Shown: piece after piece, positions 3,108-29,845 of the stretch
Layout of the letters: each line of letters opens with the position of its first letter
Numbering within the stretch: position 1 is the stretch's first letter
NCBI RefSeq assembly: GCF_000012925.1
Contig: NC_007517.1
Span: 2,370,001-2,402,000 of the forward strand
Reading direction: 5' to 3'
Length of the DNA: 32,000 nucleotides
Source of the DNA: Geobacter metallireducens GS-15
Lineage (GTDB): Bacteria > Desulfobacterota > Desulfuromonadia > Geobacterales > Geobacteraceae
Notes under the pieces: model-generated
What the model was told of the DNA's origin: nothing
What the model saw: the letters and a program-made list of their open reading frames with translations, nothing else
The model's database searches: none
Position numbers and translations under genes: made by a program

Positions 3108-3161
3108 CCGGTTGCAACGGGCGGCAATCAATTACATCATTTACGAGAAAGAGGATTACTT

Positions 3162-4091
3162 ATGAAACAGTTCTCCCTCCGTCGGCTGTTGTTCCTCCCT
3201 TGCATCGCCCTTGCCGTATTTCTGTTCTCCGCCCCCCTGACGTGGGCCGGCGGAGGGCAGCACTATCCGAACGGTGTCGAAGACTTCGCCGTGGGGGCAC
3301 TCCCCCCTCCGGGTGTCTATCTCGTGAATTACCTGCTGCTCGTCCAGAAAAACAGCATCAAGGACAATTCCGGAAACAGCGTACCGGCGGATTTCAAGGC
3401 TGATGTGGTGGCCGAGGTCCCCCGACTCATCTACGTCAGTCCGTTCAAGCTATTGGGAGCCAACTGGGGCGCCCATGTCTTTCTTCCCTTCTACCACGCC
3501 GATGTGAAAAGCAGTTCCGACATCCCCCCGCTCAATTTCGATTCCCGCGACACGGGGATGGGGGATCTTATCTTCAGCCCCCTCATCCTTGGCTGGCACT
3601 TCACCCCCTCGCTCCATGCCGTCTTTGCACTGGACACCTGGGCACCCACCGGGGACTACGACAAGAACCGGCCGGCAACCCAGATCCTCTCCAGGAACCA
3701 CTGGACCTTCGAGCCGGTCGTGGCGGTCTCATACCTCAAGGAGGGTTTCGACGTCTCCGCCAAGCTCATGTACGACTTCAACACCAGAAACAGCGACACC
3801 GGCACCGACCCAGGCCAGGAGTTCCACATTGACTGGGCAGCGGGCTATGGACTCAGCAACGGGCTGAGCGGGGGCGTGGTGGGCTACAACTACTGGCAGA
3901 CCACCGACGACAAGGTCAACGGAGTCAGGGTCGAAGACGCAAACAGCAGGGTGGGAGGCATCGGCTTCGGCATCAAGTACTGGCCCAAACAGGGGCCGTT
4001 CAGCATGACCTTCAAACAGTACTGGGAGTATGGCGCCCGCAACATCGCCACCGGCCCCCAGACCCAGTTCAAGATTTCCTATGCCTTCTGA
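3162..4091 (+). CDS. Outer-membrane beta-barrel channel, MetA-pathway / phenol-degradation OMP family
   Basis: Signal peptide MKQFSLRRLLFLPCIALAVFLFSAPLTWA. Alternating amphipathic strands. C-terminal aromatic residue (KISYAF). GALPPPGVYLVNY and FEPVVAVSY blocks are shared with the paralogue at 25093-26016. RBS AAGAGGA upstream. Confidence 0.7.
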   Translation: MKQFSLRRLLFLPCIALAVFLFSAPLTWAGGGQHYPNGVEDFAVGALPPPGVYLVNYLLLVQKNSIKDNSGNSVPADFKADVVAEVPRLIYVSPFKLLGANWGAHVFLPFYHADVKSSSDIPPLNFDSRDTGMGDLIFSPLILGWHFTPSLHAVFALDTWAPTGDYDKNRPATQILSRNHWTFEPVVAVSYLKEGFDVSAKLMYDFNTRNSDTGTDPGQEFHIDWAAGYGLSNGLSGGVVGYNYWQTTDDKVNGVRVEDANSRVGGIGFGIKYWPKQGPFSMTFKQYWEYGARNIATGPQTQFKISYAF

Positions 4092-4763: not shown

Positions 4764-6185
4764 ATGGCCGACACAGAGCAGCATCTGGAAGAGATGCTTC
4801 GGCTGGCAAATTTCACCATAGAGCGGACCGGCACCCCCATTGTCTGGGTGGACTCCACGACCCGTTTTGCACGGGTAAACGACGCGGCATGCCGGTGTTT
4901 CGGTTACTCGCCCGATGAATTCATCCGCCTGACTGCCCAGGACATCGCCCCGGGGATCCCCACGGAATTGTGGCCGCAGCACTGGGCAGAGCTGAAGCGG
5001 ATGCAATTCCGCACCTTTTCGGATCATTTCAGAAAACGCTCCGGGGAAAAGTTCCCGGTAGAGGTCGAGGAAAACTTCATCCGGTTCGAAGGGAGGGAAT
5101 ACTCCTGCAGCTTCATCAAGGACATGACCCAGCATTTCCAGACCCAGGAAGCCCTGAGGCGGGCCTTGGACGAGGTGCAAACGCTCAAAAACCGTCTGGA
5201 AGCCGAAAACGTGTACCTGATGAACGAGATCAAACTCTCCAACAACTTCGATGAAATAGTCACCGGCAATCCCATCTTCATGAAGGCCCTGCAGCTTGTG
5301 GAACAGGTTGCCCCCACCGATGCGTCCGTACTTATCCTCGGAGAAACAGGCGTCGGCAAGGAACTCATCGCCCGCGCCATCCATAACCTGAGCAACCGCC
5401 GTGATCGCCCCCTCATCCGGCTCAATTGCGCCGCATTGCCGGCAACTCTCATGGAAAACGAACTTTTCGGCCACGAAAGGGGAGCCTTCACGGGAGCGAA
5501 CTGCCGCAAACCCGGCAGGTTCGACCTGGCTGACGGGGGGACCCTTTTTCTCGACGAGGTGGGTGATCTGCCCATGGAGTTGCAGAGCAAGCTTCTGCGT
5601 GTCTTGCAGGAAGGGGAATTCGAGCGGCTCGGCGGCGCTGAAACGATAAAGGTCGATGTACGCATCCTGGCCGCGACCCACGTGGATTTGAAAGCCCTGC
5701 TTGCCGAGGGGCGGTTTCGCAGCGACCTGTACTATCGCCTCAATGTCTTTCCGATCCAATGCCCCCCCCTCAGGGAACGCAGGGAAGACATCCCCCTGCT
5801 GGTCAGGCATTTTGTCAAAGCCTCCTGCGAAAAGAACGGAAAAAGCATCGAGCTTATTCCGCGCCATGTCATGGAGTCACTGGAGGGGTACCCCTGGCCC
5901 GGCAATATCCGGGAACTGCAGAACGTTATCGAACGGGCGGTGATCATCAGCCGGGGAAACAAGCTGGAGATCGACTCCCTCCCTAAAATGGTCATAGCCG
6001 CCGATGCAGCCCCCATCTCACCTCTGGAAGTGACCGAACGGGAACATATCATCCGTGCTCTCGAAACAACGGCATGGCGAGTCGGCGGGCCAAAGGGCGC
6101 CGCTGAAATCCTCGGACTGAAACGCACAACCCTCCAGGCGAGGATGCGCAAGCTCGGCATCAACCGGCAGGGCCTGCCAGCCTGA
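4764..6185 (+). CDS. Sigma-54-dependent transcriptional activator with N-terminal PAS sensor (PAS-AAA+-HTH)
   Basis: PAS-like N-terminus. Walker A GETGVGKE. ELFGHERGAFTGA (GAFTGA sigma-54 contact loop). [14 protein letters not shown]-terminal Fis-type HTH AAEILGLKRTTLQARMRKLGI. Confidence 0.9.
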   Translation: MADTEQHLEEMLRLANFTIERTGTPIVWVDSTTRFARVNDAACRCFGYSPDEFIRLTAQDIAPGIPTELWPQHWAELKRMQFRTFSDHFRKRSGEKFPVEVEENFIRFEGREYSCSFIKDMTQHFQTQEALRRALDEVQTLKNRLEAENVYLMNEIKLSNNFDEIVTGNPIFMKALQLVEQVAPTDASVLILGETGVGKELIARAIHNLSNRRDRPLIRLNCAALPATLMENELFGHERGAFTGANCRKPGRFDLADGGTLFLDEVGDLPMELQSKLLRVLQEGEFERLGGAETIKVDVRILAATHVDLKALLAEGRFRSDLYYRLNVFPIQCPPLRERREDIPLLVRHFVKASCEKNGKSIELIPRHVMESLEGYPWPGNIRELQNVIERAVIISRGNKLEIDSLPKMVIAADAAPISPLEVTEREHIIRALETTAWRVGGPKGAAEILGLKRTTLQARMRKLGINRQGLPA

Positions 6186-6287
6186 CCGCACGCACACTGA
6201 CTCTCATCCTCCTTCTCCCCCTCCCCTTTCCCGCACGCTGTCTCCCGAGCAAACGCCCAAGTTTTTCAGAAGATATCGTTCTATTAT

Positions 6288-6330
6288 TTTTTGCCATCAT
6301 TTGGGCTCTGCTCCAACATATGGGCAAAAA
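6288..6330. repeat. 8-bp perfect inverted repeat TTTTTGCC-N27-GGCAAAAA; candidate upstream activator site
   Basis: TTTTTGCC at 6288-6295 and GGCAAAAA at 6323-6330, read directly. Centre lies about 125 bp upstream of the -12 element at 6433-6436, the usual distance for enhancer-binding-protein sites. The function is inferred. Confidence 0.3.
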
Positions 6331-6421
6331 CCACCATACCCCAGCACACAAACCCTGTCTGTCACAACAATTTAATACCTTATTTCATAATGTTACATAT
6401 TTTTTACTCAATCAGCATCCA

Positions 6422-6437
6422 TGGAACACCTGTTGCT
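6422..6437 (+). promoter_or_regulatory. Sigma-54 (-24/-12) promoter
   Basis: TGGAAC-ACCTG-TTGCT against consensus TGGCAC-N5-TTGCW. The GG (6423-6424) and GC (6435-6436) are separated by exactly 10 nt. Lies 64 nt upstream of ATG 6501, after an AT-rich stretch and next to a sigma-54 activator gene. Confidence 0.6.
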
Positions 6438-6500
6438 AAACATTGTTTTGAATAAACGATTCCACAAATGCAAATCCCCATCACAGGAGAGGAGGCTCAC

Positions 6501-7868
6501 ATGTTAACCAGGACAGATGGCAAGGGCAGTAAGGTACTATTAATCGCGGCCATGGACACCAAGGGAACAGAAGCCCGTTACATCGAATCGTGGCTGGCGA
6601 AGGCGGGTTTCACCACGTTGATCATGGATATGGGTATCCGTGGAAAAAGGCCCGGTCCGGTCGCAGTCACCCGGGATGAAGTGCTGCGCGCTGCCGGGAA
6701 GACCTGGGATGACATACAAAATGTCACCAGCGAGGGGGACGCCGTGGACATCATGATCTCCGGCGGCGTCAAGTGTGCGCTTGCCCTGTACAAAGCTGAT
6801 CTAATTCAGGGGGTCATCAGTCTTGGGGGAACAATGGGCACCACCCTGGGCACGGGAGTGATGCGGGCTTTCCCCATTGGTTTCCCTAAGGTAATGATCT
6901 CTACCATCGCTGCCAAGGATACCGAGGCATTTATTGGGAACATGGATATTTTCATGCTGAATTCGGTGTCTGATCTGGCAGGACTGAACCGGATCACCCG
7001 TAAAGTGTTGCGAAACGGGGCGCTGGCAATTGCCGGCCTGGTCAGGGAACGGGAGTTCCATGACGAATTTTCACGCCCGCTGGCCGTCCTGACGACTCTG
7101 GGCACAACGGAGGCCACGGCGGCACGGATGAGAATCCACTTTGAGGCGTGGGGATACGAAAGTGTGACGTTCCATACCACGGGAACCGGCGGCCAGGCAA
7201 TGGAGCGGATGGTCAACTTCGAACCGGTCTCCGCAGTGGTGGACCTGTCCCTTCATGAACTGATAGACCACCATTTCGGAGGAGCGTTCGATCCCGGTCC
7301 GGAGCGTGGCAGAGCTGCCCTGCAAAAGGGGATACCGACGGTGATCGTTCCGGGCAATATCGATTTTCTGGTAACCGGTCCCATGGCCCAGGCCCAGATT
7401 TATTTTCCCGGCAGACGGGGGCACAAACATAACGCCAACATCACCTGCGTCCGGACAAGTCTGGAGGAAATCCAACGGATAGCAGAAATCATGGCCGGTT
7501 ACTGCAATGAAAGCACGGGGCCCGTTGCCGTCCTCGTGCCCATGAAGGGGTTCTCATGCCTGGATCATGAGGATGGCCCCCAACCGGACCCGGAGGGGCC
7601 TCGCGTTTTCGCCGAAACCTTCGCCAGGGCATTAACGCGCACCATCCATTTTGAAACGGTCCCGCTGCACATAAACGACGAAGCGTTTTCCGAAGTAATT
7701 GTCGGGGCACTGCAAAAAATCGGCGGACTGCGGAAAATCGAGGCTGATCGGCTACCATCCCGACAACCTGCGACATGGAGCCCTTACAGCTCAGTGCACA
7801 CCCTCGACCGCTTCTCCGGTAATCAGCACACCACTACGGAAACAACAGGAGATGCGCTTGCGGCATGA
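6501..7868 (+). CDS. UPF0261 / Tm-1-like ATP-binding family protein (full length, with about 50 aa C-terminal tail)
   Basis: KVLLIAAMDTKGTE, ISLGGTMGTTLGTGVMRAFPIGFPKVMIST and FMLNSVSDLAGLNRITRKVLRNGALAIAG match the conserved UPF0261 blocks as I remember them. ATG 6501 is preferred over 6468 because GGAGAGGAGG (6486-6495) precedes it. Confidence 0.75.
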   Translation: MLTRTDGKGSKVLLIAAMDTKGTEARYIESWLAKAGFTTLIMDMGIRGKRPGPVAVTRDEVLRAAGKTWDDIQNVTSEGDAVDIMISGGVKCALALYKADLIQGVISLGGTMGTTLGTGVMRAFPIGFPKVMISTIAAKDTEAFIGNMDIFMLNSVSDLAGLNRITRKVLRNGALAIAGLVREREFHDEFSRPLAVLTTLGTTEATAARMRIHFEAWGYESVTFHTTGTGGQAMERMVNFEPVSAVVDLSLHELIDHHFGGAFDPGPERGRAALQKGIPTVIVPGNIDFLVTGPMAQAQIYFPGRRGHKHNANITCVRTSLEEIQRIAEIMAGYCNESTGPVAVLVPMKGFSCLDHEDGPQPDPEGPRVFAETFARALTRTIHFETVPLHINDEAFSEVIVGALQKIGGLRKIEADRLPSRQPATWSPYSSVHTLDRFSGNQHTTTETTGDALAA

Positions 7869-7884
7869 AGAACAATTCAAACAT

Positions 7885-7927
7885 CCCCCCGGGAACCGTC
7901 ATCATTGATGAAGAGGTGCCCGGGGGG
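7885..7927. other. GC-rich stem-loop (9-bp perfect stem CCCCCCGGG / CCCGGGGGG, 25-nt loop holding an inner TCATCA/TGATGA repeat) between convergent genes
   Basis: Arms at 7885-7893 and 7919-7927, read directly. Starts 17 nt after the stop at 7868. No adjacent U-tract, so it is not a classical intrinsic terminator. Confidence 0.3.
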
Positions 7928-8159
7928 ATGTCACATTTTCCACCACTGGTTCCCGGAAGGGGCGGAGCTCTCGCGGAGAAGCGATCCCCGCAAAAAACCA
8001 CCTACGGCGTTTGCGGAGGGAAAGCCCCGGGAATAGCTGTTCACGTGCCACGAAGACCGGCTGGTGACGCTGGATCGCTTCGGAGCGAGAGATCCGCCCC
8101 TTCCGACACCATGCGTGACCAAGTTGAAGTAATGAGCACCAGCCGTTGAATCCGCCGGT

Positions 8160-8879
8160 TCAGAACGATGTGACGATAGCAGGGAGTACGGTGTGGGAGG
8201 GAATCAGCCGGTCAGGAGCATGCATCGACAGGGAGGCGCTGTCGCCGGCCCCGGTGAGCACGCTCACCACTCGCACGCCGGCGGCGCGGCTGGCGAAAAT
8301 ATCTATCGGGGCATCACCCACGTAGAGGGCGTCGGCGGGTGCGACGCTGAGGTGATCCAGGCATTTAAGGATCCCCTCGGGGTCGGGCTTGCTCTTGGAG
8401 ACATCCTTGCCGAGCACGACCGCGTCAAAGCGCTCCAGGACACCGTTTGGCCGAAGCAGTTCCAGAACTTCGGGGCGGGCGCCGCTCACGATGCCGAGCA
8501 GTATCCCGAGACCTTTCAGCGCATCGAGCGTTTCCAGCACCCCGTCGAACAGCTTGCCGTGCTCCCGCAGTATCCGCGGCCACTCCCGGGCGGCATTGGC
8601 GGAAATAGCCTTCAAGATGGCAGCGCCATCACTCCGATCCTCCGGCACAATGCCTTTCCAGAAGCTGCCCCCAGAGGAGAGCGCCAGCCGCACCTGTTCC
8701 TCTGTCACCTCAAAGCCGAACGGCTCGGCAGCGACCCGCGCCACCTCGATGTAGGCGCCGACCGAATCGACCAGCGTACCGTCAAGATCGAACAGTACCG
8801 CCCTGACGGCGAGCGAGCAACACAACTCCGCCCCGGGCCCTGCCTCGGTCCCAAACGTAGAATGCCCTTCAAATGCCAT
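8160..8879 (-). CDS. HAD-superfamily hydrolase (phosphoglycolate-phosphatase-like, subfamily IA)
   Basis: VLFDLDGTLVDS (motif I, DxDGT), IVSGA (motif II) and YVGDAPIDIFASRAAG (motif IV). ATG 8879 is preceded on the minus strand by GGGAG with a 5-nt spacer. Confidence 0.8.
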   Translation of the reverse strand: MAFEGHSTFGTEAGPGAELCCSLAVRAVLFDLDGTLVDSVGAYIEVARVAAEPFGFEVTEEQVRLALSSGGSFWKGIVPEDRSDGAAILKAISANAAREWPRILREHGKLFDGVLETLDALKGLGILLGIVSGARPEVLELLRPNGVLERFDAVVLGKDVSKSKPDPEGILKCLDHLSVAPADALYVGDAPIDIFASRAAGVRVVSVLTGAGDSASLSMHAPDRLIPSHTVLPAIVTSF

Positions 8880-8901
8880 GATGACTCCCGGAACTACCGG
8901 T

Positions 8902-9378
8902 TCAAGTCTTATCTGCCATGCTCAGATCAACCTCGTCGCGATTGCCCAAGCCGAGTGAATTGTCGATAAAATAGAGACGGTGCGGAACCACCTTGTACCA
9001 GCGAACCTTGGCCATGGCCTTGACAATGGCCGCCGGAGCCTGGGCCAGCAACCCGACCACCGGGAACTTCCGCCCGTACAGCTTGCGGGCTTTTTCTTCC
9101 TCGGCGCCGGAAATCTCGACGGCTATCCCTTCGATCTGCACCCCCTTGATTTCCAGCCAGTCGGCATAATCCTCCTGGATGGTCACGGCAACGCATGCCT
9201 CCTGGGCCAGATCGAGACAATGCCGGGTCGTTGGCGATGACAGAAAATAGAGGGTATAACCATCGTTTGCGTAGAACACCGCCGCCGCCCACGGGCCACC
9301 GCTGCCGCTGGTTGCCACGGTGGCAACATTGTGGTCCAGCAGGTACCTCTGCACCCGCATGCCCAGCGCGTCTTTCAC
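8902..9378 (-). CDS. Pyridoxamine-5'-phosphate-oxidase-like (FMN-binding split-barrel) protein
   Basis: 158 aa. LLDHNVATVATSGSGGPWAAAVFYANDGYTLYFLSSPTTRH...VTIQED is the typical PNPOx-like fold signature. A GTG start at 9378 overlaps the upstream stop (GTGA). ATG 9360 is the alternative start. Confidence 0.65.
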   Translation of the reverse strand: MKDALGMRVQRYLLDHNVATVATSGSGGPWAAAVFYANDGYTLYFLSSPTTRHCLDLAQEACVAVTIQEDYADWLEIKGVQIEGIAVEISGAEEEKARKLYGRKFPVVGLLAQAPAAIVKAMAKVRWYKVVPHRLYFIDNSLGLGNRDEVDLSMADKT

Positions 9379-14965: not shown

Positions 14966-14981
14966 TGGCATATCCAGTGCT
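14966..14981 (+). promoter_or_regulatory. Sigma-54 (-24/-12) promoter for the downstream catabolic/respiratory gene string
   Basis: TGGCAT-ATCCA-GTGCT. The GG (14967-14968) and GC (14979-14980) are separated by 10 nt. Only the T to G change at the first -12 position departs from TGGCAY-N5-TTGCW. Lies in a 650-bp AT-rich gap divergent from a sigma-54 activator gene. Confidence 0.55.
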
Positions 14982-15115: not shown

Positions 15116-16261
15116 ATGACCGCAATGAATGACGGGCAGCATGGGGCGACCATGGATGAACTGGTGAACAACGGGCTGGATAACGTTAATAGCGGCACAA
15201 GGGCCGCTGTCCCGGGCATCGCCCAACTGGGGTTCTACCTGGTGATATTCATGGCCATAAGCTGGGCGATGATGTTCTTCATCCCCACGCCGTTCCTCTT
15301 TACCGTGCTCCTCCCCGCTTCTTTTTACGTCCTGTACAGCCTGGTGGTTTTCTCCCCCCTGGTTTCCGGCGGGTGGCCCTTCGCTCCCCCCCTCGGCAGC
15401 TGGCGCCCCGGGCAGAGTTGGCTGAAGCCGGGAGTGGGGACGACGGCTCTTCTGGTGGCCGTCGCCATCGCCGGTCCCCTCTTCACAAGCACGATCTATC
15501 CCCGAATCCCTCTTTTCCCGGTCGGGTTCTGGTGGGGGATCATCCTCTTCACGGTCACCCTCTGGTATTCCATGGTCTGGAACGGCTGGCCCCTCAACGG
15601 GAAATGTTCTCCGGCCGTGCGGGGCATCGGCGGCGGCCTGATCATCCTTCTGATCACCGCGCTTCTGTGGCAACTGGTCAACCTGGGCGGTACCCCCTTT
15701 GCCGACGCCCCCTATGATCCCCGCGGGCCGTTCCAGGCTGAATGGTTCTTCGGTCTCCTGGTCTGGATCATCGTCTGGATCCAGGCCTTCGCCAACGTCC
15801 TGACTTTCCAGCAATGGCCCTTTTACAAACTGGGCGAGCCCTGGGGGCAAATCGCCAACACCGTGGTCTCCATCGTTCTCGGCTGGCTCTGCTGGACCAC
15901 AAGCCTCAAATTCATGGCCCCGACCTTCTCCTTCGCGGCGGTCGCCGGCTCCATCATCGGGATGCAGAACTTCCACGGCGCCATCTTCGGCTACTATCCG
16001 TTCCTCAAGTTCAAACAGCCTAAACGGGGCATCTGCAACTTCCTCACGGAAATTGCCCTGGCCTTCGTCTGGATCGCCCTGCTCCGGGTACTGATGCAGC
16101 CCATTGTCGCCAAGGTGCAAGCAGCGGGGCTCCCGTTCGACATCAATGTAGTCTCGGTTCTCTACACCCTGCATTTCATCGCCCTGCTCACGCTCATCCA
16201 CAACTTCTATTTCCTGCGGGCACCCCTGCCCCCATCCGGACCTCCCCCTGCTCCCGAATAA
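15116..16261 (+). CDS. Polytopic integral membrane protein of unknown function (about ten hydrophobic segments, Trp-rich loops)
   Basis: 381 aa. No motif I recognise and no CxxCH. GGGAG (15105-15109) lies 6 nt before ATG 15116. Would be the first gene of the pcm string if the published lettering follows gene order. Confidence 0.65.
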   Translation: MTAMNDGQHGATMDELVNNGLDNVNSGTRAAVPGIAQLGFYLVIFMAISWAMMFFIPTPFLFTVLLPASFYVLYSLVVFSPLVSGGWPFAPPLGSWRPGQSWLKPGVGTTALLVAVAIAGPLFTSTIYPRIPLFPVGFWWGIILFTVTLWYSMVWNGWPLNGKCSPAVRGIGGGLIILLITALLWQLVNLGGTPFADAPYDPRGPFQAEWFFGLLVWIIVWIQAFANVLTFQQWPFYKLGEPWGQIANTVVSIVLGWLCWTTSLKFMAPTFSFAAVAGSIIGMQNFHGAIFGYYPFLKFKQPKRGICNFLTEIALAFVWIALLRVLMQPIVAKVQAAGLPFDINVVSVLYTLHFIALLTLIHNFYFLRAPLPPSGPPPAPE

Positions 16262-16316
16262 GTGAGTCCATGTCGTTCCAGCCCTTAAGAGAGCACAACG
16301 AACAGAGGAGAAGACG

Positions 16317-18164
16317 ATGGCAAACCCAAGCGGCAAATATCAGGTGAAGATCCTGGGCATCGAGGACTATCAGGCCTTGACGGCATGTCAGAGCGCCTGC
16401 CCCCTGGGAACTGATACCAAGCGGTACGTACGGGCCATCACCGAAGGAGATTACGAGAAGGCTTTTCTCATCGCCCGGCAGACCAATCCCCTGGTGTCGG
16501 TCTGCAGCAGGGTCTGCACCGCCCCCTGCGAAAAGTCCTGCCGGAAAGGGGAGCAAGGACACCCGGTTGATATCCGCGCCCTGAAGCGGTTCGCCTGCGA
16601 CAAGCATGGCGTGACATCGCCCCGCGCCGTCGCCGGGAGGCTTGAAGAGATCTCGCGCCAGAACGGAGGGGTGGGAGACCGGACCGGCAACCATATCCTG
16701 ACCATGGCCGCCGTGCAAAAGGCCGGCGCAGCGGCCACATCGCGAAAGCCTGCCCCCCGGGTGGCCATCATCGGGTCCGGCCCGACCGGCCTCTCGGCAG
16801 CCCACGATCTCGCCCTGCTCGGCTACGGGGTGACCATCTTCGAGGCAGCCCCCTACGCGGGGGGGATGCTCCGCACCGGGATTCCGGCCTTCCGCCTCCC
16901 CAAAGACGTGCTCCAGCAGGAGATCGATGCGATCCTGAATCTCGGCGTGGAACTGAAGCTGAACAGCCCCATCGGCGAAGACCTGACCCTGGCCGACCTC
17001 AAGGCGCAGGGGTACGAGTCGGTGTTCATCACCATCGGCCTGCAAGATCCCCTGCGGATTCTGAACATCGAAGGGACCGACCTGGCGGGGATCTACAGCG
17101 GCGTCGAGTATGTGCGGGATCACGAAAAGATCCGGCTCGGGAAACGCTGTCTGGTCATCGGAGGCGGCGGGGTGGCCATTGACTGCGCCCAGCACGCCGT
17201 GCGGCAGGGGGCGGAGCAGGTGATGATCGCCTGCCTCGAGTCCTGGGAGACGATGCCCGCAAGCCTGACGGAACGGGAAGACGCCCAGGAGGAGGGGATC
17301 GTGTTCCACCCTGCCCTCGGCCCGCGCCGCTTCATGGGCCACAACGGGCACGTCGCCCGGGCCGAGTTCCTCCAGGTGAGCTCCGTCTTCGACAGCGAAG
17401 GACGATTCGCCCCCACTTTTGTCCCGGACAGCACCACCACCCTGGAAGTCGATTCGGTCATCCTCGCCGTGGGCCAGGCCTCCACTGCCCCTTCCCTGGC
17501 GGGACTCGCCGGGCTGGACCTCACCCCCAACGGACTGATCAAGGCGGCAGAGGACATGTCCACCAACCTCCCCGGCGTTTTTGCCGGCGGCGACGTGCGC
17601 TGGCGCTTCACCCGCAATGCCACGGACGCCATTGCCGACGGGCAGAAGGCGGCCCGCGCCATCCATGGTTATCTCAGCGGCCATACGCCCCAGGTGATCC
17701 GGAAGGGGTTCATGCGGCCGGTGTCGCCGGACTTCGAGAATACCCGCTGCGACACCATCGCCCCGGTACCGATCCCCAAGCGTGATGCCGGCGAGCGGGT
17801 CCGGACCAAAGAGGAGATCACCATCGGCTTCGGAGAGGCGGAGGCACGGGAGCAAGCCGCCCGGTGCCGGCGGTGCAACATCCAGACGGTGTTCGAGCGG
17901 TCCCGGTGCCTGCGGTGCGGCACCTGCGTCGACACCTGCGTGAATGGCGCCCTGAGGATAGTCCGGCTGGCGGATATCCAGGGTGACGAAGATGTGGCGA
18001 AGCTGACCGATGCCCTGAAGAAGAGCGCGCAGACCCGCAGCAAGGCAATGACCGCGATCATCAAGGACGAGAGCCGCTGCGCCAGCTGCGGCATGTGCGC
18101 CCGACGCTGCCCCGGCGGAGCCATAACCATGGCCGAGTTCTACTGCCAAGAGGAATGGGAATAA
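16317..18164 (+). CDS. GltD-like (glutamate-synthase small-subunit family) NAD(P)H-dependent FeS flavoprotein with C-terminal 2x[4Fe-4S] ferredoxin domain
   Basis: N-terminal [10 protein letters not shown]...[19 protein letters not shown] cluster motif. [17 protein letters not shown] and [12 protein letters not shown] dinucleotide folds. C-terminal CRRCN...[11 protein letters not shown] and [12 protein letters not shown]. Confidence 0.85.
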
Positions 18165-18193: not shown

Positions 18194-18937
18194 ATGAGTG
18201 AATCAGCCTACAGCATTACAGAAGCCATCCGGCAACTTCCAAGAAACATCAAGGCGTCCATCTCCCGCCGCGGAGAAGGAACCGTGGAACAGGAACAGGC
18301 CGCGGCGGTATTCGGCAACATGTTCCTCCATCTCCATCCGGTGCGGGTCCATGTGAACTCCCTGCGCGCGGGATACACCTTCGGGCTGGGACTGATCTCC
18401 TTCTACCTCTTTCTCATCCTGGTCGCCTCGGGGCTGCTGCTGATGTTCTATTACACCCCCTCCACCGAGCTGGCCTACCGGAACATGAAAGACCTCGAAT
18501 ACGTCGTCACCTTCGGCGTGATCCTGCGCAACGTCCACCGCTGGTCGGCCCATGCCATGGTCGCCTTTGTCTTCCTCCACATGTGCCGGGTCTTCTATAC
18601 CGGCTCCTACAAGGCTCCCCGTGAATTCAACTGGGTCATCGGCGTCTTCCTGCTGCTCGTGACGCTCTTCCTGAGCTTTACCGGCTACCTCCTCCCCTGG
18701 GATCAGCTGGCCTTCTGGGCCGTTACCGTCGGCTCCAATATCGCCGGCTACATGCCCGTACTCGGGGATTACATCCGCTTCCTGATGCTGGGGGGGAATG
18801 AGGTCGGCCAGATGGCGCTCCTGCGGTTCTACGTGCTGCACGTGGTGGCGCTCCCTCTCCTTGCCGCCACCCTGCTGGGAGTTCACTTCTGGAGGATCCG
18901 CAAGGACGGTGGCCTGTCACGGCCCAGGAACGACTGA
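18194..18937 (+). CDS. Cytochrome b6-type subunit (N-terminal four-helix core of cytochrome b)
   Basis: Haem-ligand His pairs [17 protein letters not shown] (13 residues between) and [17 protein letters not shown] (14 between). [15 protein letters not shown] 18194 with GGAGA 6 nt upstream is preferred over the ORF-track start at 18095. Confidence 0.85.
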
Positions 18938-18978: not shown

Positions 18979-19500
18979 ATGCAAGCAGCTAAAAAAGAAG
19001 AGATATTCCCGAAGGACCCCAACAAGACCTATTCCCTGATGGCAATCGTCGACGGCGACTCCTTCCAGGTGGAAAAGGGTCCCGAAGACACGGTGCAGAG
19101 CTGGCCGCACCTCATGGTGCGCGAGCTGGGGCTGTTCCTGCTGGTCCTCGCCGTGATCATGGGTGTTTCCCTCATCTTCAACGCCCCCCTGGAGGAAGCG
19201 GCCAATCCCCAGCACTCCACCAACCCGGCCAAGGCCCCCTGGTATTTCGTCGGCATCCAGGAACTGGTGAGCTATTCGGCACTTCTGGGGGGGATCGTAA
19301 CCCCGGCCATCATCGTGGTCACGCTTCTGCTCCTCCCCTATCTGGACCGGAACCCCAAGGGGACCGGCGTCTGGTTTTCCCGGGACCGGCGGGTCGCCAC
19401 TATCCTGTTCACCGTCTTTGTCGTAGCCATGCTCATTCTTATCGTAATCGGACAGTTCCTGCGGGGACCGAACTGGCATCTGTACCTGCCGTGGCAATGA
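18979..19500 (+). CDS. Cytochrome b C-terminal part / subunit-IV-like (PetD-like)
   Basis: 173 aa with three hydrophobic helices. Qo-loop motif NPAKAPWYFVGIQEL. RBS GAGGAGG upstream. Confidence 0.8.
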   Translation: MQAAKKEEIFPKDPNKTYSLMAIVDGDSFQVEKGPEDTVQSWPHLMVRELGLFLLVLAVIMGVSLIFNAPLEEAANPQHSTNPAKAPWYFVGIQELVSYSALLGGIVTPAIIVVTLLLLPYLDRNPKGTGVWFSRDRRVATILFTVFVVAMLILIVIGQFLRGPNWHLYLPWQ

Positions 19501-19536: not shown

Positions 19537-20055
19537 ATGAGTTCCGAAAACAGCACCGGCGCAACGATTCTCCCCTTCAGAACCTCCGATGACGTGGTGG
19601 ACGAGGATCGCAGAGGCTTCGTGAAAAAGATGGCGCTGACGGCCCTCACCGTGGGAGTCGGGGGAGCTGCCATCCAGAGCGCCCGTTTCTTCAAGCCCAA
19701 TGTGCTCTACGAGCCCTCAAAGGCTTTCAAGGTGGGCGAGCTGAGCAAGTTCCCCATCGGAAGCCGCATCGTCATCGAAGGCCGGGGGATCGAGATCGTC
19801 AGAGAACGGGACGGCATGCACGCCATATCCCTTGTCTGCACCCACCTGGGATGCCTCATAAAGCCCGTGGAGAACGACCCCGACACCGGGTACATGTGCC
19901 CCTGCCACGGCTCCACCTTTACCCTTACGGGTGGAGTTCTAGGGGGCCCCGCCCCGAAGGATCTCCCCTGGTACGAGATGTACATGGACAATACCGGGGC
20001 TCTCGTGGTGGACACGTCCAAGGTGAACCACAAACGGACCAAACTCGCAGTCTGA
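19537..20055 (+). CDS. Rieske [2Fe-2S] subunit with twin-arginine signal
   Basis: DRRGFVKKMALTALTVG Tat signal/anchor. CTHLGC and CPCHGS cluster-binding boxes. Confidence 0.9.
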   Translation: MSSENSTGATILPFRTSDDVVDEDRRGFVKKMALTALTVGVGGAAIQSARFFKPNVLYEPSKAFKVGELSKFPIGSRIVIEGRGIEIVRERDGMHAISLVCTHLGCLIKPVENDPDTGYMCPCHGSTFTLTGGVLGGPAPKDLPWYEMYMDNTGALVVDTSKVNHKRTKLAV

Positions 20056-20070
20056 GACAGGAGCAAACCC

Positions 20071-21009
20071 ATGGAGGATAAGCAGATGGAAAAGGCAGTT
20101 TCACGCAAGCTTACATTATTCTGCGTCATCTGCGGGCTGGCCGTACTGGTCCTTATGGGAGCAACGGTGATCCGCGACGGGGAGCGGGAATGGAAGCATT
20201 ACCAGACCCAATACCGGGAGATGCTTCTGAAGATGATCAAGAAAGAGGACAACCCGACCTTCTATCAGCGGGTTGAGGAGATGAAGCCGGAGATCCGGCA
20301 GATCGTCGTCGATGAATGGAAGACGGTGGACCGCTGCACCACCTGTCACCTGGGGATCGAAGACCCCCTCTTTGCCAACGCCAAGCAGCCGTTCACCACC
20401 CACCCCAATCCGGAGCTGCTGAAGCACCATCCGGTGGATAAGTTCGGCTGCACCATGTGCCATGGCGGCCAGGGGCTGGCCACAACCTACAATGGCTCCT
20501 CCCACCAGCCCATCGACAACTGGCCCATCACCCTGGTGTCCAAGGGGCTCATGCAATCCCGGTGCGGCTACTGCCACAAGGATTTCGAGGCCATCAAGGC
20601 GGACCGCCTCATCAAGGGGCGCGAACTCTACAAGGAGATGCACTGCGCCGGCTGTCACCAGATCGACGGCCAGGGGGGGAACGTGGGGCCGGACCTGAGC
20701 AACTTCGCCGACAAGGACCCCAGCAACTTCTCCTACGAGAGCATAGAGGGCCCCCACTCCAAGCAGACGTGGGTCATCGAACACTTCAGGGATCCCAAGC
20801 GGGTCAGCCCCGGCACCCCGATGCGCACCTACGCCATGAACGACGACCAGATCGAATGTCTCGCGAGCTATGTCCTGAGCCTGACCCAGCGGGGTTTCTC
20901 GCGCCCCTACAGCACCAAGGTGAAGGCTGACTTTGTGCCGCACAAGGTGGACGAATACGTCCCCGAACCCGAATTGTCCGACTCCGCGGACGACGCCGAA
21001 AGCAACTAG
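20071..21009 (+). CDS. Membrane-anchored tetrahaem c-type cytochrome
   Basis: Four CxxCH motifs (CTTCH, CTMCH, CGYCH, CAGCH). N-terminal hydrophobic anchor LTLFCVICGLAVLVLMGATVI. The last haem lies in a class-I-like domain (CAGCHQIDGQGGNVGPDL). ATG 20086 is an alternative start. Confidence 0.85.
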   Translation: MEDKQMEKAVSRKLTLFCVICGLAVLVLMGATVIRDGEREWKHYQTQYREMLLKMIKKEDNPTFYQRVEEMKPEIRQIVVDEWKTVDRCTTCHLGIEDPLFANAKQPFTTHPNPELLKHHPVDKFGCTMCHGGQGLATTYNGSSHQPIDNWPITLVSKGLMQSRCGYCHKDFEAIKADRLIKGRELYKEMHCAGCHQIDGQGGNVGPDLSNFADKDPSNFSYESIEGPHSKQTWVIEHFRDPKRVSPGTPMRTYAMNDDQIECLASYVLSLTQRGFSRPYSTKVKADFVPHKVDEYVPEPELSDSADDAESN

Positions 21010-21061
21010 ACAGCCGGGCGATCATTGACGCTGGAGAGACTTTCCAATGAGGAGAGAGAGA

Positions 21062-21445
21062 ATGAATCGGAAAACCTCGTTAATAGTGGCGGCAGCACTG
21101 GTCTTCGGGATGCTCTTGCCGGGCTCCGGGGCACTGGCGCAGGAACCGCCGAAAATGCCCTACGTCTTCGCCATGTACTGCGTGATGTGCCACAAGGAAG
21201 GGGTTCAGATCGGCCCCATAGGCATCTACGACATGATGTCGAAGAGCGGCAACCCGTTGCACGAGCAGCTTATCCGCAACAATACCCGCTTCGGCTACAA
21301 CGCCATGCCTGCCTTCAGGATGTCGGAGGTAAGCCCGAAGGAGATGAACGCCATCGTGGCCTACCTGAAGGACGTGGCGGCATACCGCAAGACCCATCCC
21401 GGTTACAAGCCGGTACCGGCGAAGGAAGGAGGGGCCAAAAAATGA
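21062..21445 (+). CDS. pcmG: Monohaem c-type cytochrome, p-cresol methylhydroxylase cytochrome (beta) subunit
   Basis: Sec signal MNRKTSLIVAAALVFGMLLPGSGALA. Single CVMCH. NAMPAF Met-ligand region. Lies immediately upstream of the flavoprotein subunits, as in pchC-pchF. The symbol is from memory of the G. metallireducens cluster. Confidence 0.75.
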   Translation: MNRKTSLIVAAALVFGMLLPGSGALAQEPPKMPYVFAMYCVMCHKEGVQIGPIGIYDMMSKSGNPLHEQLIRNNTRFGYNAMPAFRMSEVSPKEMNAIVAYLKDVAAYRKTHPGYKPVPAKEGGAKK

Positions 21446-25062: not shown

Positions 25063-25092
25063 CGTTCAATGAGCATTTGGAGGAAACAATCC

Positions 25093-26016
25093 ATGAATCT
25101 ATCAAAATCCCTGATACTGAGCATCTGCCTCACGACCATCGTCTTCATCCACTCGGGAGCCTGGGCCTTCAATTCCAGTTCCTTCAACGGCACGGCCGAC
25201 TTTTACGCCGGAGCCGCTCCGCCGCCGGGACTCCATCTCATCGACTACAACGTCTTCATGGATATCAAGAAGATAGAAAACAAGGGACAGGGACTGGTGG
25301 ACGGCAAAGGGACCCTGACCGCCATAGCCTTCCGCCCCATCTATGTCTCGGAAAAGGGGCTCTTCGGCGGCAACTTCCTCATGCACTCCATCATTCCCCT
25401 CCTGTCGGTGGAGGCCGACGTGAAGGCAAACACGCCCGGCGGGCAGATCACCGTGCAAGGCCATGACGGAGGGCTTGGCGATGTCTATTTCGGGGTGGGG
25501 ATGGCGTGGCACACCCCGGTCTGGCACTGGCTGACGGTACTGGACGTCATCACCCCCACCGGCAGCTTCGATCCGAACAAACCCGTCAATGCCGGCAACA
25601 ACGCCTTCATCATCGAACCGGTTGTGGCCGTTACCGGCATGTTCCCGAACGGCATGGAGGTGAATGCCAAGTTCATGTACTCCTACCACACCAAGAACAG
25701 CGACTATGTGGAAGCCGGAACGGGTATCAAGGGGTATCAGACGGGACAGGCGTTCCACATGGACTACAACGTGAACTATGCCGTGACCAAGGATCTGAAG
25801 CTCGGTGTTACCGGCTGGCTCTGGCAGGGACTGGAGAACGACCGGATCGGCGGGCAGAAACGTGCCGACACCAAGGACTTCGAATTCTCCATGGGGCCGG
25901 CAGCCCGATACCAGAACGGCAAGTTTGCCGTCATCGGCAAGTATGTGCTGCCGGTGGCCGCCGAGAACCGTATCGAAGCCAACCAGCTCTGGATCGATCT
26001 GGTCTATTCATTCTAG
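25093..26016 (+). CDS. Outer-membrane beta-barrel channel, MetA-pathway / phenol-degradation OMP family, copy 2
   Basis: Signal peptide MNLSKSLILSICLTTIVFIHSGAWA. GAAPPPGLHLIDY, IIEPVVAVTG, C-terminal LVYSF. GGAGG (25079-25083) lies 9 nt before ATG 25093, which is preferred over ATG 25069. Confidence 0.7.
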   Translation: MNLSKSLILSICLTTIVFIHSGAWAFNSSSFNGTADFYAGAAPPPGLHLIDYNVFMDIKKIENKGQGLVDGKGTLTAIAFRPIYVSEKGLFGGNFLMHSIIPLLSVEADVKANTPGGQITVQGHDGGLGDVYFGVGMAWHTPVWHWLTVLDVITPTGSFDPNKPVNAGNNAFIIEPVVAVTGMFPNGMEVNAKFMYSYHTKNSDYVEAGTGIKGYQTGQAFHMDYNVNYAVTKDLKLGVTGWLWQGLENDRIGGQKRADTKDFEFSMGPAARYQNGKFAVIGKYVLPVAAENRIEANQLWIDLVYSF

Positions 26017-26056
26017 GGATTTCACAGGGATTGACACTCTTCCGGAGGGTACAACG

Positions 26057-27145
26057 ATGGACGACAAGAAAATACTGATAATCAATCCAGGCTCCACCTC
26101 GACGAAAATCGGTGTCTTTACCGAAGGGAAGATGATCGTCAATCAATCGGTGAAGCATGACGACGAGGAACTGAGGAAGTTCCCCACCATCTGGGACCAG
26201 TATGATTTCCGCCGGGATGCAATCTTCAAGGTGCTCGCGGACAACAACCTCTCCATGGGGGAAATTGACGCCATCGCCTGCCGGGGCGGCAACGTCAGGC
26301 CCCTTCCCGGCGGCATCTACCGGGTCTGCCCGAAGATGATCGAGGACATGAAGAGCGGCATCTATGGCGGCCATCCCATCAATGTGGGGGGGCTGGTGGC
26401 CTTCGACCTGGGGAACCAGTTCAATATCCCGGTCCTCACCGCCGATCCCCCCATGACCGACGAACTCTGCGCCTCGGCCCGGTACAGCGGCATTCCCCAG
26501 ATCACCAGACAGAGCAGTTTCCACGCCCTCAACCAGAAGGCCACTGCCAGGAAGATCGCCGCGGAACTGGGAAAGAAATACGACGAAATCAACCTGATCG
26601 TCGCCCACCTGGGTGGCGGAATTTCGGTGGGCGCCCACCGCAGAGGAAAGATCATCGATGTGAATAACGCCCTTGACGGCGACGGCCCCTTCTCCCCGGA
26701 GAGGGCCGGCTCCCTTCCGGCGGGCGACCTGGTGAAGCTCTGCTTCAGCGGCGAGTACACCAAAAAAGAGGTTCTCAAGCTACTGACCGGAAAGGGAGGA
26801 CTGTTCGCCTATATGGGAACGACCGACGCCGTCGAAATCGAGAAGAGAATCGCCCATGGTGGGCAGAAGGCGGCGGAGGTCTATGAAGCGATGATCTACC
26901 AGGTGGCCAAGGAGATCGGTGCCAGCGCGGCGGTCCTTGAGGGAGATGTTGACGCCATCGCCCTCACCGGCAGCCTGGCCTACTCGAAAAAGCTCGTGGA
27001 AAGCCTGAGCAGGAAGATTTCCTTCATCGCCCCGGTGCTCCTCAATCCGGGCGAAAACGAAATGGAAGCCCTGGCCGACGCGGCCATGAGGTATTTCAAC
27101 AATGAAGAGGCCCTCTCCGTCTACCACCAGGACAAGGCGGCATGA
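26057..27145 (+). CDS. Butyrate-kinase-family (ASKHA) acyl kinase, copy 2
   Basis: MDDKKILIINPGSTSTKIGVF... Same conserved blocks as 2028-3107. Roughly four residues in five look identical by eye. ATG 26057 with GGAGGG upstream. The listed ORF start at 25805 overlaps the porin gene. Confidence 0.85.
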   Translation: MDDKKILIINPGSTSTKIGVFTEGKMIVNQSVKHDDEELRKFPTIWDQYDFRRDAIFKVLADNNLSMGEIDAIACRGGNVRPLPGGIYRVCPKMIEDMKSGIYGGHPINVGGLVAFDLGNQFNIPVLTADPPMTDELCASARYSGIPQITRQSSFHALNQKATARKIAAELGKKYDEINLIVAHLGGGISVGAHRRGKIIDVNNALDGDGPFSPERAGSLPAGDLVKLCFSGEYTKKEVLKLLTGKGGLFAYMGTTDAVEIEKRIAHGGQKAAEVYEAMIYQVAKEIGASAAVLEGDVDAIALTGSLAYSKKLVESLSRKISFIAPVLLNPGENEMEALADAAMRYFNNEEALSVYHQDKAA

Positions 27146-28402: not shown

Positions 28403-29845
28403 ATGAAAGAATACAGACTTTTCATCAACGGAGAATGGGTGCCCTCCTCCACGGGCACCATGGCCGACGACATCAATCCGGCCACCGGCGACGTGTATGC
28501 CAAGGTGCACCAGGCGAGCCGTGATGATATCGAACAAGCCATCGCCTCCGCCTATCGCGCCCGGGTAGATTGGGGGAAAACGGTGCCGGCCCAGCGGGAG
28601 GCGATCCTGATCAAGGCCGCCGCCATTCTCGAAGAGCGGATTCCCGAGTTCGCAGAGGTGCTCATCGAGGAAGGTGGCGCCACCTTCGGCAAGGCGATGT
28701 TCGAGTCCTCTTTTGTCGTCACCCTGCTCCGGAGCGCGGCCGGTGAGTGCCGGCGCATCTTCGGCGAGACGATCCCCTCCGACGCCCCGGGCCTCTTTTC
28801 CATGAGCGTCCGCAGGCCCCTGGGAGTCATCGCGGGGATCTCCCCCTTCAACTTCCCGTTCCTGCTGGCCATGAAAAAAGTCGCACTGGCCCTGGCCGCC
28901 GGCAACACCTTCGTCCTCAAGCCTGCCTCGCCGACGCCGGTCATCGGCCTGAAGATCGCCGAACTGTTCGAGGCGGCCGGTCTTCCTAAGGGGGTCCTCA
29001 ACGTCATCCCCGTCAAGGGGAGCACCCTGGGAAATACCCTGGTGGAGGACCCGAGGATCCGGATGGTGACCTTCACCGGTTCCACGGACGTGGGAAAACA
29101 GCTGGCCGAGGTCGCGGGGCGCCACCAGAAGAAGATCACCCTGGAAATGGGCGGGAAAAGCCCCCTCATCGTGCTCAAGGATGCGGATATCGACTATGCG
29201 GTTGACGCCGCCGTGTTCGGCATCTTCCTCCACCAGGGACAGGTCTGCATGGCCAACTCACGGCTCATCGTCGAAGCAGACATCTACGACCGGTTCTGCG
29301 AGAAACTGACGGCAAAAGTCAAAGGGCTCAAGATGGGCGACCCCCACAAGCCCGACACGGTCATCGGCCCCCTCATCGACGCCAAGCAGTGCGCCTTCAT
29401 CGACTCCCAGGTACACGACGCCCTGGCCGACGGGGCGCGGGTTCTCTCGGGAGGAAGGTCGGAAGGTGCGTTCTATCAGCCCACCATCGTGGCCGACGTG
29501 ACCAGGAAGATGCGCATCTTCGACGAGGAGAGTTTCGGCCCGGTCGTCTGCGTCATCAAGGCCGCCAACAGCGAAGAGGCCCTGGCCCTGGCCAACGACT
29601 CCTCCTTCGGCCTCTCCGCCGGCCTGATCACCAACGACCTGCAGAAGGCCTTCGATCTGTCGCTGCGGCTTGAGTCCGGCATGGTCCACATCAATGACAG
29701 CAGCATCTTCGACGAGCCCCATGTCCCCTTCGGCGGCGTGAAAGACAGCGGCGTCGGACGCGAAGGCGGCCACTATTCCATGGAGGAGATGACCGAGGTG
29801 AAGTGGATTACCGTGCAGATGGGCAAACGGCAATTCCCCTTCTAG
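28403..29845 (+). CDS. pcmO: NAD(P)+-dependent aldehyde dehydrogenase (4-hydroxybenzaldehyde dehydrogenase by context)
   Basis: 480 aa. FTGSTDVGKQL, LEMGGKSP (catalytic Glu), QGQVCMANSR (catalytic Cys), EESFGPV. The symbol is from memory. Confidence 0.85.
   Translation: MKEYRLFINGEWVPSSTGTMADDINPATGDVYAKVHQASRDDIEQAIASAYRARVDWGKTVPAQREAILIKAAAILEERIPEFAEVLIEEGGATFGKAMFESSFVVTLLRSAAGECRRIFGETIPSDAPGLFSMSVRRPLGVIAGISPFNFPFLLAMKKVALALAAGNTFVLKPASPTPVIGLKIAELFEAAGLPKGVLNVIPVKGSTLGNTLVEDPRIRMVTFTGSTDVGKQLAEVAGRHQKKITLEMGGKSPLIVLKDADIDYAVDAAVFGIFLHQGQVCMANSRLIVEADIYDRFCEKLTAKVKGLKMGDPHKPDTVIGPLIDAKQCAFIDSQVHDALADGARVLSGGRSEGAFYQPTIVADVTRKMRIFDEESFGPVVCVIKAANSEEALALANDSSFGLSAGLITNDLQKAFDLSLRLESGMVHINDSSIFDEPHVPFGGVKDSGVGREGGHYSMEEMTEVKWITVQMGKRQFPF

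Follow-up and report, generated by a model that had tools for sequence, protein, structure and literature searches.

Our sequence and structure-prediction analyses of a 32,000-nucleotide stretch of the Geobacter metallireducens GS-15 genome (contig NC_007517.1, positions 2,370,001 to 2,402,000; hereafter the window, numbered from its first letter) concern the first two genes of the p-cresol (pcm) cluster, pcmA (Gmet_2117) and pcmB (Gmet_2118), which lie on the forward strand ahead of the genes for a bc-type complex. We propose that each belongs to a functional module of its own and that only in Geobacterales do the two modules stand behind one promoter: PcmB would be the NADH arm of a Rieske/cytochrome b complex, and PcmA would handle phenolic molecules at the membrane. 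We give this joint reading a probability of roughly 55%. Within it, the part concerning PcmB is probable, and the chances that PcmA handles phenolics are even at best. The gene names are those of PMC10989804, and both products are annotated as parts of a "PcmABCDEFG complex", a working annotation as one unit that the two-module reading would correct. PMC7324539 credits Peters et al. 2007 with the whole cluster, Gmet_2117-2127. In the literature other than the two primary papers of 2007/2008, we found no experimental statement on the function of PcmA or PcmB.

The two-module reading derives from the neighbors that each gene keeps in other genomes. Of 401 genomes drawn from across the phylum, 22 have a homolog of PcmB (E ≤ 1e-90). 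Fifteen PcmB loci were fetched from these positive genomes, and in 14 of them, spread over many genera, Rieske and cytochrome b genes come immediately after a homolog of 35–58% identity; none of the 15 encodes a PcmA homolog. A cytochrome b gene follows the PcmB homolog in loci L030–L032 as well. In Desulfuromonas sp. TF (L031, KI421413.1), pcmB forms an operon with cytochrome b and subunit IV genes, and a divergent operon encodes the Rieske protein, a cytochrome c, and p-cresol methylhydroxylase (PCMH), ending in an MFS transporter gene. No pcmA lies within 9 kb of pcmB in this strain, and a Peripla_BP_6 gene stands in its place; PcmA may here have been replaced by other transport components. 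A metagenomic contig encodes PcmB (56% identity), the Rieske protein, cytochrome b, subunit IV, a 710-residue multiheme cytochrome c, a Fer4_11 protein, a molybdopterin enzyme, and a TorD/NarJ-like chaperone, with neither PCMH nor PcmA, the molybdopterin enzyme being the periplasmic partner instead. A small open reading frame upstream of PcmB in three loci (L032, L056, and L057) was considered as a substitute for PcmA and rejected, given that it encodes a triheme cytochrome c with a signal peptide and not a membrane protein.

A related cluster recurs in many Desulfobacterota genera (loci L056–L070, from genomes G269, G211, G256, G227, G382, G308, G162, G021, G291, G101, G234, G065, and G045). 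It comprises genes for a PcmB-like protein, a Rieske protein, cytochrome b, a multiheme cytochrome c, a molybdopterin oxidoreductase, and a Fer4_11 protein. The cytochrome b is often longer and fused with subunit IV; the multiheme cytochrome c is usual, and the molybdopterin and Fer4_11 proteins are often present.

PcmA keeps other company. Its homologs were found in 12 of the 401 genomes, and in nine of the ten informative loci (the window's own genome left out) a gene with PEP-utilizers and/or PPDK_N domains, that is, a PpsA- or PpsB-like gene, lies within a few kilobases and mostly directly adjacent; none of these ten loci has a PcmB, cytochrome b, or Rieske gene. A scan of named genomes yielded 31 PcmA loci. 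The arrangement PcmA–PcmB(–bc–PCMH) was present in 16 Geobacterales/Desulfuromonadales loci, the first two genes always adjacent. All 13 informative loci outside Geobacterales (from Peptococcaceae, Pelotomaculum terephthalicicum, Desulfosporosinus, Desulfocucumis, Syntrophus, Syntrophaceae, Desulfocarbo indianensis, and Syntrophorhabdales) have Pps-like genes and are free of PcmB and cytochrome b genes. The original prediction had treated the two genes as a pair to be sought together across genomes; outside Geobacterales this pairing fails, with PcmB clusters lacking PcmA and PcmA homologs lacking PcmB. Because no shared loci occur there, we regard the adjacency of pcmA and pcmB as a Geobacterales-specific juxtaposition of two modules. 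PpsABC, phenylphosphate synthase, serves anaerobic phenol degradation in Thauera aromatica, G. metallireducens, and Desulfatiglans anilini, and a Pps-like pair adjoins the PcmA homolog in nearly all non-Geobacterales loci; unlike in that context, pcmA of Geobacterales heads the p-cresol/bc operon. The neighbors of the window's own pcmA are XylR-type regulator genes and pcmB rather than a Pps-like pair, and ppsA/ppsB-like genes lie 17–20 kb upstream on the same strand of the same island.

Individual loci illustrate the association further. In Desulfosarcina ovata and others, the PcmA homolog lies within Pps-like clusters; in Desulfoscipio it directly follows the gene for a molybdenum enzyme resembling 4-hydroxybenzoyl-CoA reductase (4-HBCR), and one homolog adjoins an extradiol-dioxygenase-like gene and an IclR regulator gene. 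Locus L028 (positions 5136–9296, genome G327) holds a three-gene unit of PpsA-like (615 residues), PpsB-like (354 residues), and PcmA-like (370 residues) proteins, flanked by genes for a copper ATPase, a peroxiredoxin, an AIR-synthase-related protein, and an MFS protein and by cas genes, with no aromatic catabolic genes nearby. Similar units are present at L021 and L025–L027. Since the L028 unit stands alone, the link of PcmA appears to be to the phosphotransferase itself and not to a whole pathway; units of this type may be detoxification or capture systems. In a quick maximum-likelihood tree, the pcm-linked PcmA sequences form one derived clade (Shimodaira–Hasegawa-like approximate likelihood ratio support 95–100) beside three Pps-linked clades, and when the tree is rooted on distant relatives the earliest branch is a Pps-linked clade, which suggests that Pps linkage is ancestral. 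One contig of a metagenome-assembled genome labeled Anaeromyxobacteraceae (L080, JBAVTL010000467.1) encodes PpsA-like, PpsB-like, PcmA, PcmB, cytochrome b, Rieske, cytochrome c, and PCMH proteins in an order that looks like a bridge between the two contexts of PcmA. Its proteins are 62–85% identical to those of Geobacter, and the bin label may therefore be wrong.

A recurrent Pps-like cluster, which we call type 1, was noted at L071, L091, L095–L100, L103, L005, and L003, its hosts being Pelotomaculum terephthalicicum, Syntrophus, Desulfocarbo, Syntrophorhabdales, and Desulfosarcina ovata. Its genes encode PPDK_N, Amidohydro_2, and HAD-like proteins, one or two small products lacking an assignment, a PEP-utilizers protein (Rph_4th domain), a PcmA-like protein, a threonine-synthase-like pyridoxal-phosphate enzyme, an old yellow enzyme homolog, a CoA ligase, and an enoyl-CoA hydratase.

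The domain structure of PcmB is consistent with its neighbors. Pfam places a Fer4_20 domain at residues 23–97, a Pyr_redox_2 domain at 148–442, and a dicluster ferredoxin domain at the C terminus (525–604), with additional NAD_binding_8 and Fer4_7 matches. No transmembrane (TM) segment is apparent, as no 19-residue window exceeds a Kyte–Doolittle value of 1.3; both analyses bear out the original description of a soluble GltD-type iron–sulfur (FeS)/FAD/NAD(P) module joined to a dicluster ferredoxin domain. The cysteines of the Fer4_20 domain are residues 24, 28, 63, 67, 71, and 75; the FAD-binding Rossmann fold has the motif GSGPTG (153–158) and the second dinucleotide site GGGGVAID (282–289), and a CxxC pair (517 and 520) precedes two CxxCxxCxxxC motifs (531–541 and 588–598). 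Among the homologs linked to Rieske/cytochrome b genes, C-x3-CP, C-x-R-x-C-x2-PC-E-x2-C, RC-x2-C, and both CxxCxxCxxxC motifs are invariant. Judged by these motifs, the number of cysteines is enough for four or more predicted FeS clusters.

By phmmer, PcmB is closest, among sequences of known structure, to the NfnB-like parts of NfnABC (9bov/9bp5; E 1e-71), followed by Thermococcus NfnABC, StnC (8oh5), and NfnB (4ylf, 5jca), and, more distantly at about 1e-40, GltD and dihydropyrimidine dehydrogenase (DPD). Foldseek returned the same relatives, with TM-scores of up to 0.72 on the target for a model whose mean predicted local distance difference test (pLDDT) score is only 62. Every NCBIfam match was below its cut-off, the best being PRK12771 with 368 against 516 bits. 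PcmB thus shares Fer4_20 and the FAD and NAD(P) Rossmann domains with NfnB, NfnABC, StnC, GltD, and the N-terminal module of DPD (4ylf_B, 5jca_L, 9bov_A, 8oh5_C, 6s6s_G, and 1h7x; E 1e-71 to 1e-40). Unlike NfnB and GltD, it has the extra C-terminal 2x[4Fe-4S] domain and CxxC pair, lacks the arginine pair for the 2'-phosphate of NADPH, and has a Rieske/cytochrome b complex as its genomic partner, with no NfnA or GltB gene in the window. After strand beta2 of the second Rossmann fold, PcmB reads ACLES where 9bov has YRRT and 9n5u YRRS, and 15 of 17 Rieske/cytochrome b-linked members have [CS]LE[ST] in place of the NADPH-specifying YRR[TS]. An acidic residue after beta2 of a Rossmann fold usually favors NADH, and from this substitution we infer a preference of PcmB for NADH. 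Together with the neighborhood, these features argue that PcmB is probably a cytoplasmic NAD(H)-linked FeS flavoprotein arm that joins the bc-type complex to pyridine nucleotide.

PcmA defines an unclassified family. No Pfam or NCBIfam family matches it, a profile built from an alignment of 31 PcmA sequences gave no match to the PDB at E ≤ 10, and Foldseek with the PcmA model against the PDB returned only noise (G-protein-coupled receptors, MFS, transhydrogenase), with a best E value of 0.43 and TM-scores of at most 0.26. The families and folds considered included MFS, EamA, MATE, and NrfD/PsrC, and both an ordinary transporter fold and an NrfD/PsrC-type quinone subunit were rejected on the lack of a profile or Foldseek match; the question raised with the original prediction, whether this is a member of an ordinary transporter family, is thereby answered in the negative. 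The ten long helices of the AlphaFold2 model (pLDDT 84.9, predicted template-modeling score 0.85, from an alignment of 31 homologs) and the hydropathy profile both agree with the ten helices first proposed. The family is rare: a profile search of 1.84 billion proteins returned 77 cluster representatives at E ≤ 1e-3. Its members have about 350–385 residues, ten TM helices, and the motifs GGWP(F/L)APP, TLWY, Q-x-[WY]PFYK, QPKRG, and a C-terminal P-x-x-P-x-GPP-x-x-PE tail, all present in PcmA, and the 31 aligned sequences have 38 invariant columns. Ten distant relatives have no Pfam or NCBIfam match, except for a helix-turn-helix (HTH) domain in one fusion protein, and remote relatives retain repeated GWP loops. 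The protein P0257 (512 residues, E 6e-6 to PcmA) has five GWP loops and an N-terminal HTH resembling sigma70 region 4.

By the positive-inside rule applied to the model helices (about 11 lysines and arginines in inside loops and 4 in outside loops), both termini of PcmA are predicted to be cytoplasmic. On this topology, the most conserved motifs all face the cytoplasm: GGWPFAPP, NGWPL, QQWPFYK, YYPF..QPKRG, and the PPxGPPxxPE tail. In the predicted cytoplasmic loops, [WY]P[FL] appears four times, following TM2, TM4, TM6, and TM8 (residues 87–89, 158–160, 234–236, and 294–296). In a test for a 5+5 repeat with hhalign, successive 2-TM units resembled one another weakly, at the level of hairpins (E 3.5e-4 to 1e-2, probability at most 37%), which is suggestive only of a construction from 2-TM hairpin repeats. 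The alignment contains no conserved cysteine, one invariant histidine (H362), and a near-invariant one (H353) on the same helix. No redox-cofactor motif is thus apparent in PcmA, and a redox role is unlikely. Geobacterales PcmA has an acidic N-terminal extension of about 32 residues (residues 1–33, 15116–15214; pLDDT below 50) that is found in no Pps-linked homolog and could reflect adaptation to its pcm setting.

Could PcmA nevertheless be an integral subunit, the anchor and partner of PcmB in a membrane-bound module that heads the bc complex and connects NAD(P)H or ferredoxin with quinone or cytochrome, as the current annotation implies? The 55-nucleotide gap between the genes, their common promoter, and their adjacency in 16 of 16 Geobacterales loci favor such a pair, as do the conserved cytoplasmic face and the clade-specific N-terminal extension of PcmA. 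Both transcripts also increase with those of pcmC–G in co-cultures that perform direct interspecies electron transfer (DIET): Table 2 of PMC10989804 gives 9- to 123-fold more pcmA–G transcript when the partner is Methanosarcina barkeri than when it is G. sulfurreducens. However, PcmB–Rieske–cytochrome b clusters elsewhere do without PcmA, PcmA homologs elsewhere have no PcmB or cytochrome b nearby, and the cytoplasmic motifs of PcmA are common to homologs from organisms that lack PcmB. With no conserved cysteine and one invariant histidine, PcmA is itself unlikely to carry electrons. We consider a PcmA–PcmB pair of this kind quite unlikely. Of the original proposal that the pair links the bc complex to NAD(P)H, the link through PcmB is probable and is supported by 14 of 15 loci, and the role of PcmA as partner or anchor is not supported, given the lack of co-occurrence outside Geobacterales. 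The supply of low-potential electrons to the 4-HBCR-like enzyme, also part of that proposal, is conceivable.

The genes and elements that enter the proposed mechanism are as follows.

14966–14981, + strand: sigma-54-type promoter-like element TGGCAT-N5-GTGC, read from the sequence, about 135 nucleotides upstream of pcmA
15116–16261, + strand: pcmA (Gmet_2117), 381-residue membrane protein with ten predicted TM helices, unclassified family
16317–18164, + strand: pcmB (Gmet_2118), 615-residue soluble NfnB/GltD-like FeS flavoprotein
18194–18937, + strand: pcmC, cytochrome b6-type subunit (Pfam Cytochrome_B, 2e-44)
18979–19500, + strand: pcmD, subunit IV-like protein (Pfam Cytochrom_B_C), Qo motif A-P-W-Y in NPAKAPWYF
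19537–20055, + strand: pcmE, Rieske [2Fe-2S] protein (Pfam Rieske, 7e-11)
20071–21009, + strand: pcmF, membrane-anchored tetraheme cytochrome c, CxxCH at residues 89, 127, 165, and 192
21047–21445, + strand: pcmG, monoheme cytochrome c with signal peptide, one CxxCH at residue 45
28403–29845: cytoplasmic aldehyde dehydrogenase

The two leading open reading frames are as originally described, the first with no recognizable motif. They are the first genes after the sigma-54-type element, and two XylR-type sigma-54 activators are divergently encoded upstream of pcmA. The pcmA start is an ATG 6 nucleotides after an in-frame TTG, behind the Shine–Dalgarno-like stretch GGACGGGAG. Homologs of both proteins are kept at 65–95% identity across Geobacterales, which argues that both are real genes; pcmA is present as a single copy in the G. 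metallireducens genome, where a search for paralogs found none. Genes for the PCMH flavoprotein follow pcmG, with synteny kept in loci L030 and L073–L088, and the 4-HBCR operon lies downstream of the pcm genes.

How might an NADH arm serve p-cresol oxidation? How strict anaerobes dispose of high-potential electrons from periplasmic hydroxylases such as PCMH has been a question since 2007–2008, and the membership of PcmB in a widespread family of NADH-type proteins attached to Rieske/cytochrome b complexes leads to a concrete scheme, in which one cytochrome c electron and one NADH electron would meet at Qo. PcmB would dock on the N side of cytochrome b, with PcmC and not PcmA as its anchor and point of electron entry, and a chain of four or more FeS clusters would wire its FAD to the b hemes. 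Since PCMH is a high-potential electron donor, we propose that the Qo reaction would run in reverse during p-cresol oxidation, as a confurcation. The first electron would pass from PCMH through cytochromes c and the Rieske center to menaquinone at Qo; the second would pass from NADH through PcmB, heme bN, and heme bP to the same menaquinone. Menaquinol would form from both, and the movement of the second electron from the N to the P side would be aided by the membrane potential. The c heme of PCMH has a potential of about +230 to +250 mV, menaquinone of about −74 mV, and NAD of −320 mV; the mean donor potential of the PCMH c heme and NADH calculated from these values is about −45 mV, near that of menaquinone.

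Such a confurcation would replace or supplement the purely proton-motive-force-driven reversed Q cycle proposed in 2008. In the passage of PMC4122944 that cites Johannes 2008, a reversed Q cycle is proposed for PcmCDEF that moves PCMH electrons to menaquinone, and the APWY clade of Qo motifs is treated in the same article. As cited there, the 2008 model addresses the same complex and the same problem with the proton motive force and the bc core only. In our scheme, unlike that model, PcmB on the N side would supply a low-potential second electron from NADH, which may make for the simpler route; PcmA is absent from both.

The closest precedent that we found is in anammox bacteria, whose Rieske/cytochrome b complexes are reportedly the subject of Kartal 2013 and de Almeida 2016. 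In Kuenenia stuttgartiensis, two such complexes (Kuste4569-4574 and Kustd1480-1485) have an NAD(P) oxidoreductase subunit (PMC12954380), and the proximity of flavoprotein and Rieske/cytochrome b genes has been seen in other lineages too (PMC5600118). The 2025 Kuenenia study (PMC12954380) models a path that leads from heme bN/cN by way of four FeS clusters to FAD and NAD(P), with 9bp5 as a structural homolog of Kuste4570. Like the pcm complex, the anammox complexes combine a soluble NfnB-like FeS flavoprotein, a Rieske protein, split cytochrome b6/subunit IV, and a multiheme cytochrome c, and in both the flavoprotein has about four FeS clusters besides FAD and a dinucleotide site, a likeness seen through the common relative NfnABC (9bp5). 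In the anammox complexes, Qo is proposed to be coupled to pyridine nucleotide. The pcm complex is unlike them in its electron-donating flavocytochrome partner PCMH, its Qo motif APWY, and the presence of [CS]LE[ST] instead of YRR[TS] in most members of the PcmB family; PCMH as a donor makes it likely that the direction is reversed relative to anammox. PcmB therefore probably fits a known kind of protein, the cytoplasmic FeS oxidoreductase attached to a Rieske/cytochrome b complex, with the direction of use reversed. This would extend the anammox-type complex to Desulfobacterota, including the genetically tractable G. metallireducens.

An alternative is that the PcmB–bc complex runs forward, as in anammox bacteria: menaquinol would be oxidized at Qo, with one electron going to a high-potential periplasmic acceptor and the other through the b hemes to PcmB, yielding NAD(P)H or, through an NfnB-like flavin, reduced ferredoxin for 4-HBCR and benzoyl-CoA reductase. 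The similarity of PcmB to bifurcating NfnB-type flavoproteins, its closest relatives, is consistent with this direction, as are the 4-HBCR operon downstream and the proposal and energetics worked out for anammox (PMC12954380). The related clusters with molybdopterin enzymes, possibly reductases, are a setting where the forward direction may apply. In the pcm cluster, however, PCMH, the periplasmic partner dedicated to it, donates electrons and does not accept them, and the linkage of PcmB across its family is to Rieske/cytochrome b and not to 4-HBCR. Four clusters are also read more simply as one wire, as in DPD and the anammox model. Moreover, the periplasmic cytochromes of Geobacter are mostly of low potential. 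For the pcm complex we consider forward operation unlikely, if still worth bearing in mind. The DIET co-cultures were grown on ethanol in the absence of p-cresol (PMC10989804), and the induction of pcmA–G there, which also favors the forward direction by pointing to a more general role, argues that the complex is not used for p-cresol only; it may have a general role in electron transport.

Several points weigh against confurcation by a PcmB–bc complex with a separate, phenolic-handling PcmA. The AlphaFold2 model of PcmB has a pLDDT of 62, falling below 50 in the C-terminal ferredoxin domain, too low for an assessment of cluster-chain geometry. The NADH specificity is read from one motif, and the direction of electron flow from thermodynamic reasoning. 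PcmA is unlike any known transporter fold, so that to call it a permease is guilt by association; phenols also pass through membranes without help, so that a permease is less needed. The constant adjacency of pcmA and pcmB in the 16 Geobacterales loci and their shared regulation make a lineage-specific physical association possible, and the N-terminal extension of PcmA could be an adaptation to such an association with PcmB.

What, then, might PcmA do? Its genomic setting argues against a part in electron transfer. The conservation of its cytoplasmic face and the obligate proximity to a soluble phosphotransferase suggest that PcmA passes or presents phenolics to a docked cytoplasmic enzyme. 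PcmA would thus handle a phenolic molecule at the cytoplasmic membrane and, by way of this face, pass or hand phenol, p-cresol, or 4-hydroxybenzaldehyde to cytoplasmic enzymes. In Geobacter, the substrate would be either phenol for Pps or periplasmically formed 4-hydroxybenzaldehyde for the aldehyde dehydrogenase encoded at 28403–29845. We found no description of a membrane component of Pps in the literature that our search returned, which included the Desulfatiglans phenol paper. The anaerobic benzene "Magic/Nanopod" cluster was considered as a relative of PcmA and found to be unrelated.

A bolder version of this idea, which we put forward as speculative and rather doubtful, is that the PcmA family forms the membrane part of a vectorial "capture by phosphorylation" of phenols, with the logic of the phosphotransferase system and unrelated proteins. 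A new 10-TM fold of hairpin repeats with cytoplasmic GWP loops would take phenols from the membrane or periplasm and hand them to a docked PpsA/PpsB-type phosphotransferase, and Geobacterales would have recruited PcmA to the p-cresol operon, beside a Rieske/cytochrome b complex that would confurcate NADH electrons. The family, whose predicted fold is confident yet without a match, accompanies phenol-phosphorylating enzymes in three phyla; if it does provide a missing membrane step in anaerobic phenol metabolism, this would be of interest to the degradation of aromatic pollutants.

It is also conceivable that PcmA senses phenolics at the membrane, or is a partner in transducing their signal, and feeds the adjacent sigma-54 regulators. 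At several loci, genes for a PAS histidine kinase and a sigma-54 response regulator directly follow the PcmA homolog; pcmA is the first gene beside the divergent XylR-type activators, and the distant relative P0257 fuses the membrane domain to its N-terminal HTH. XylR-type activators, however, bind effectors directly through their own V4R/XylR_N domains, the immediate neighbor of PcmA homologs is mostly a Pps-like pair and not a regulator, and the HTH fusion is only a remote relative. A sensory role is in our view very improbable, and phenolic handling is retained as the reading for PcmA.

Two minor features of the locus may be added. The N-terminal region of PcmC (18194–18937) reads FGLGLISF. 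In b6-type cytochromes, the cysteine that binds heme ci/cn lies in the sequence C-L-G-G; if that position corresponds to FGLGLISF, the PcmC complex would lack heme ci/cn. Finally, a gene for a Phenol_MetA_deg outer-membrane channel adjoins a gene of the acetate/butyrate-kinase family twice in the window, at 2028–4091 and 25069–27145, once in the phenol part and once in the p-cresol part of the island, and the pair is also kept in Geomonas (L030, 17750–19758).

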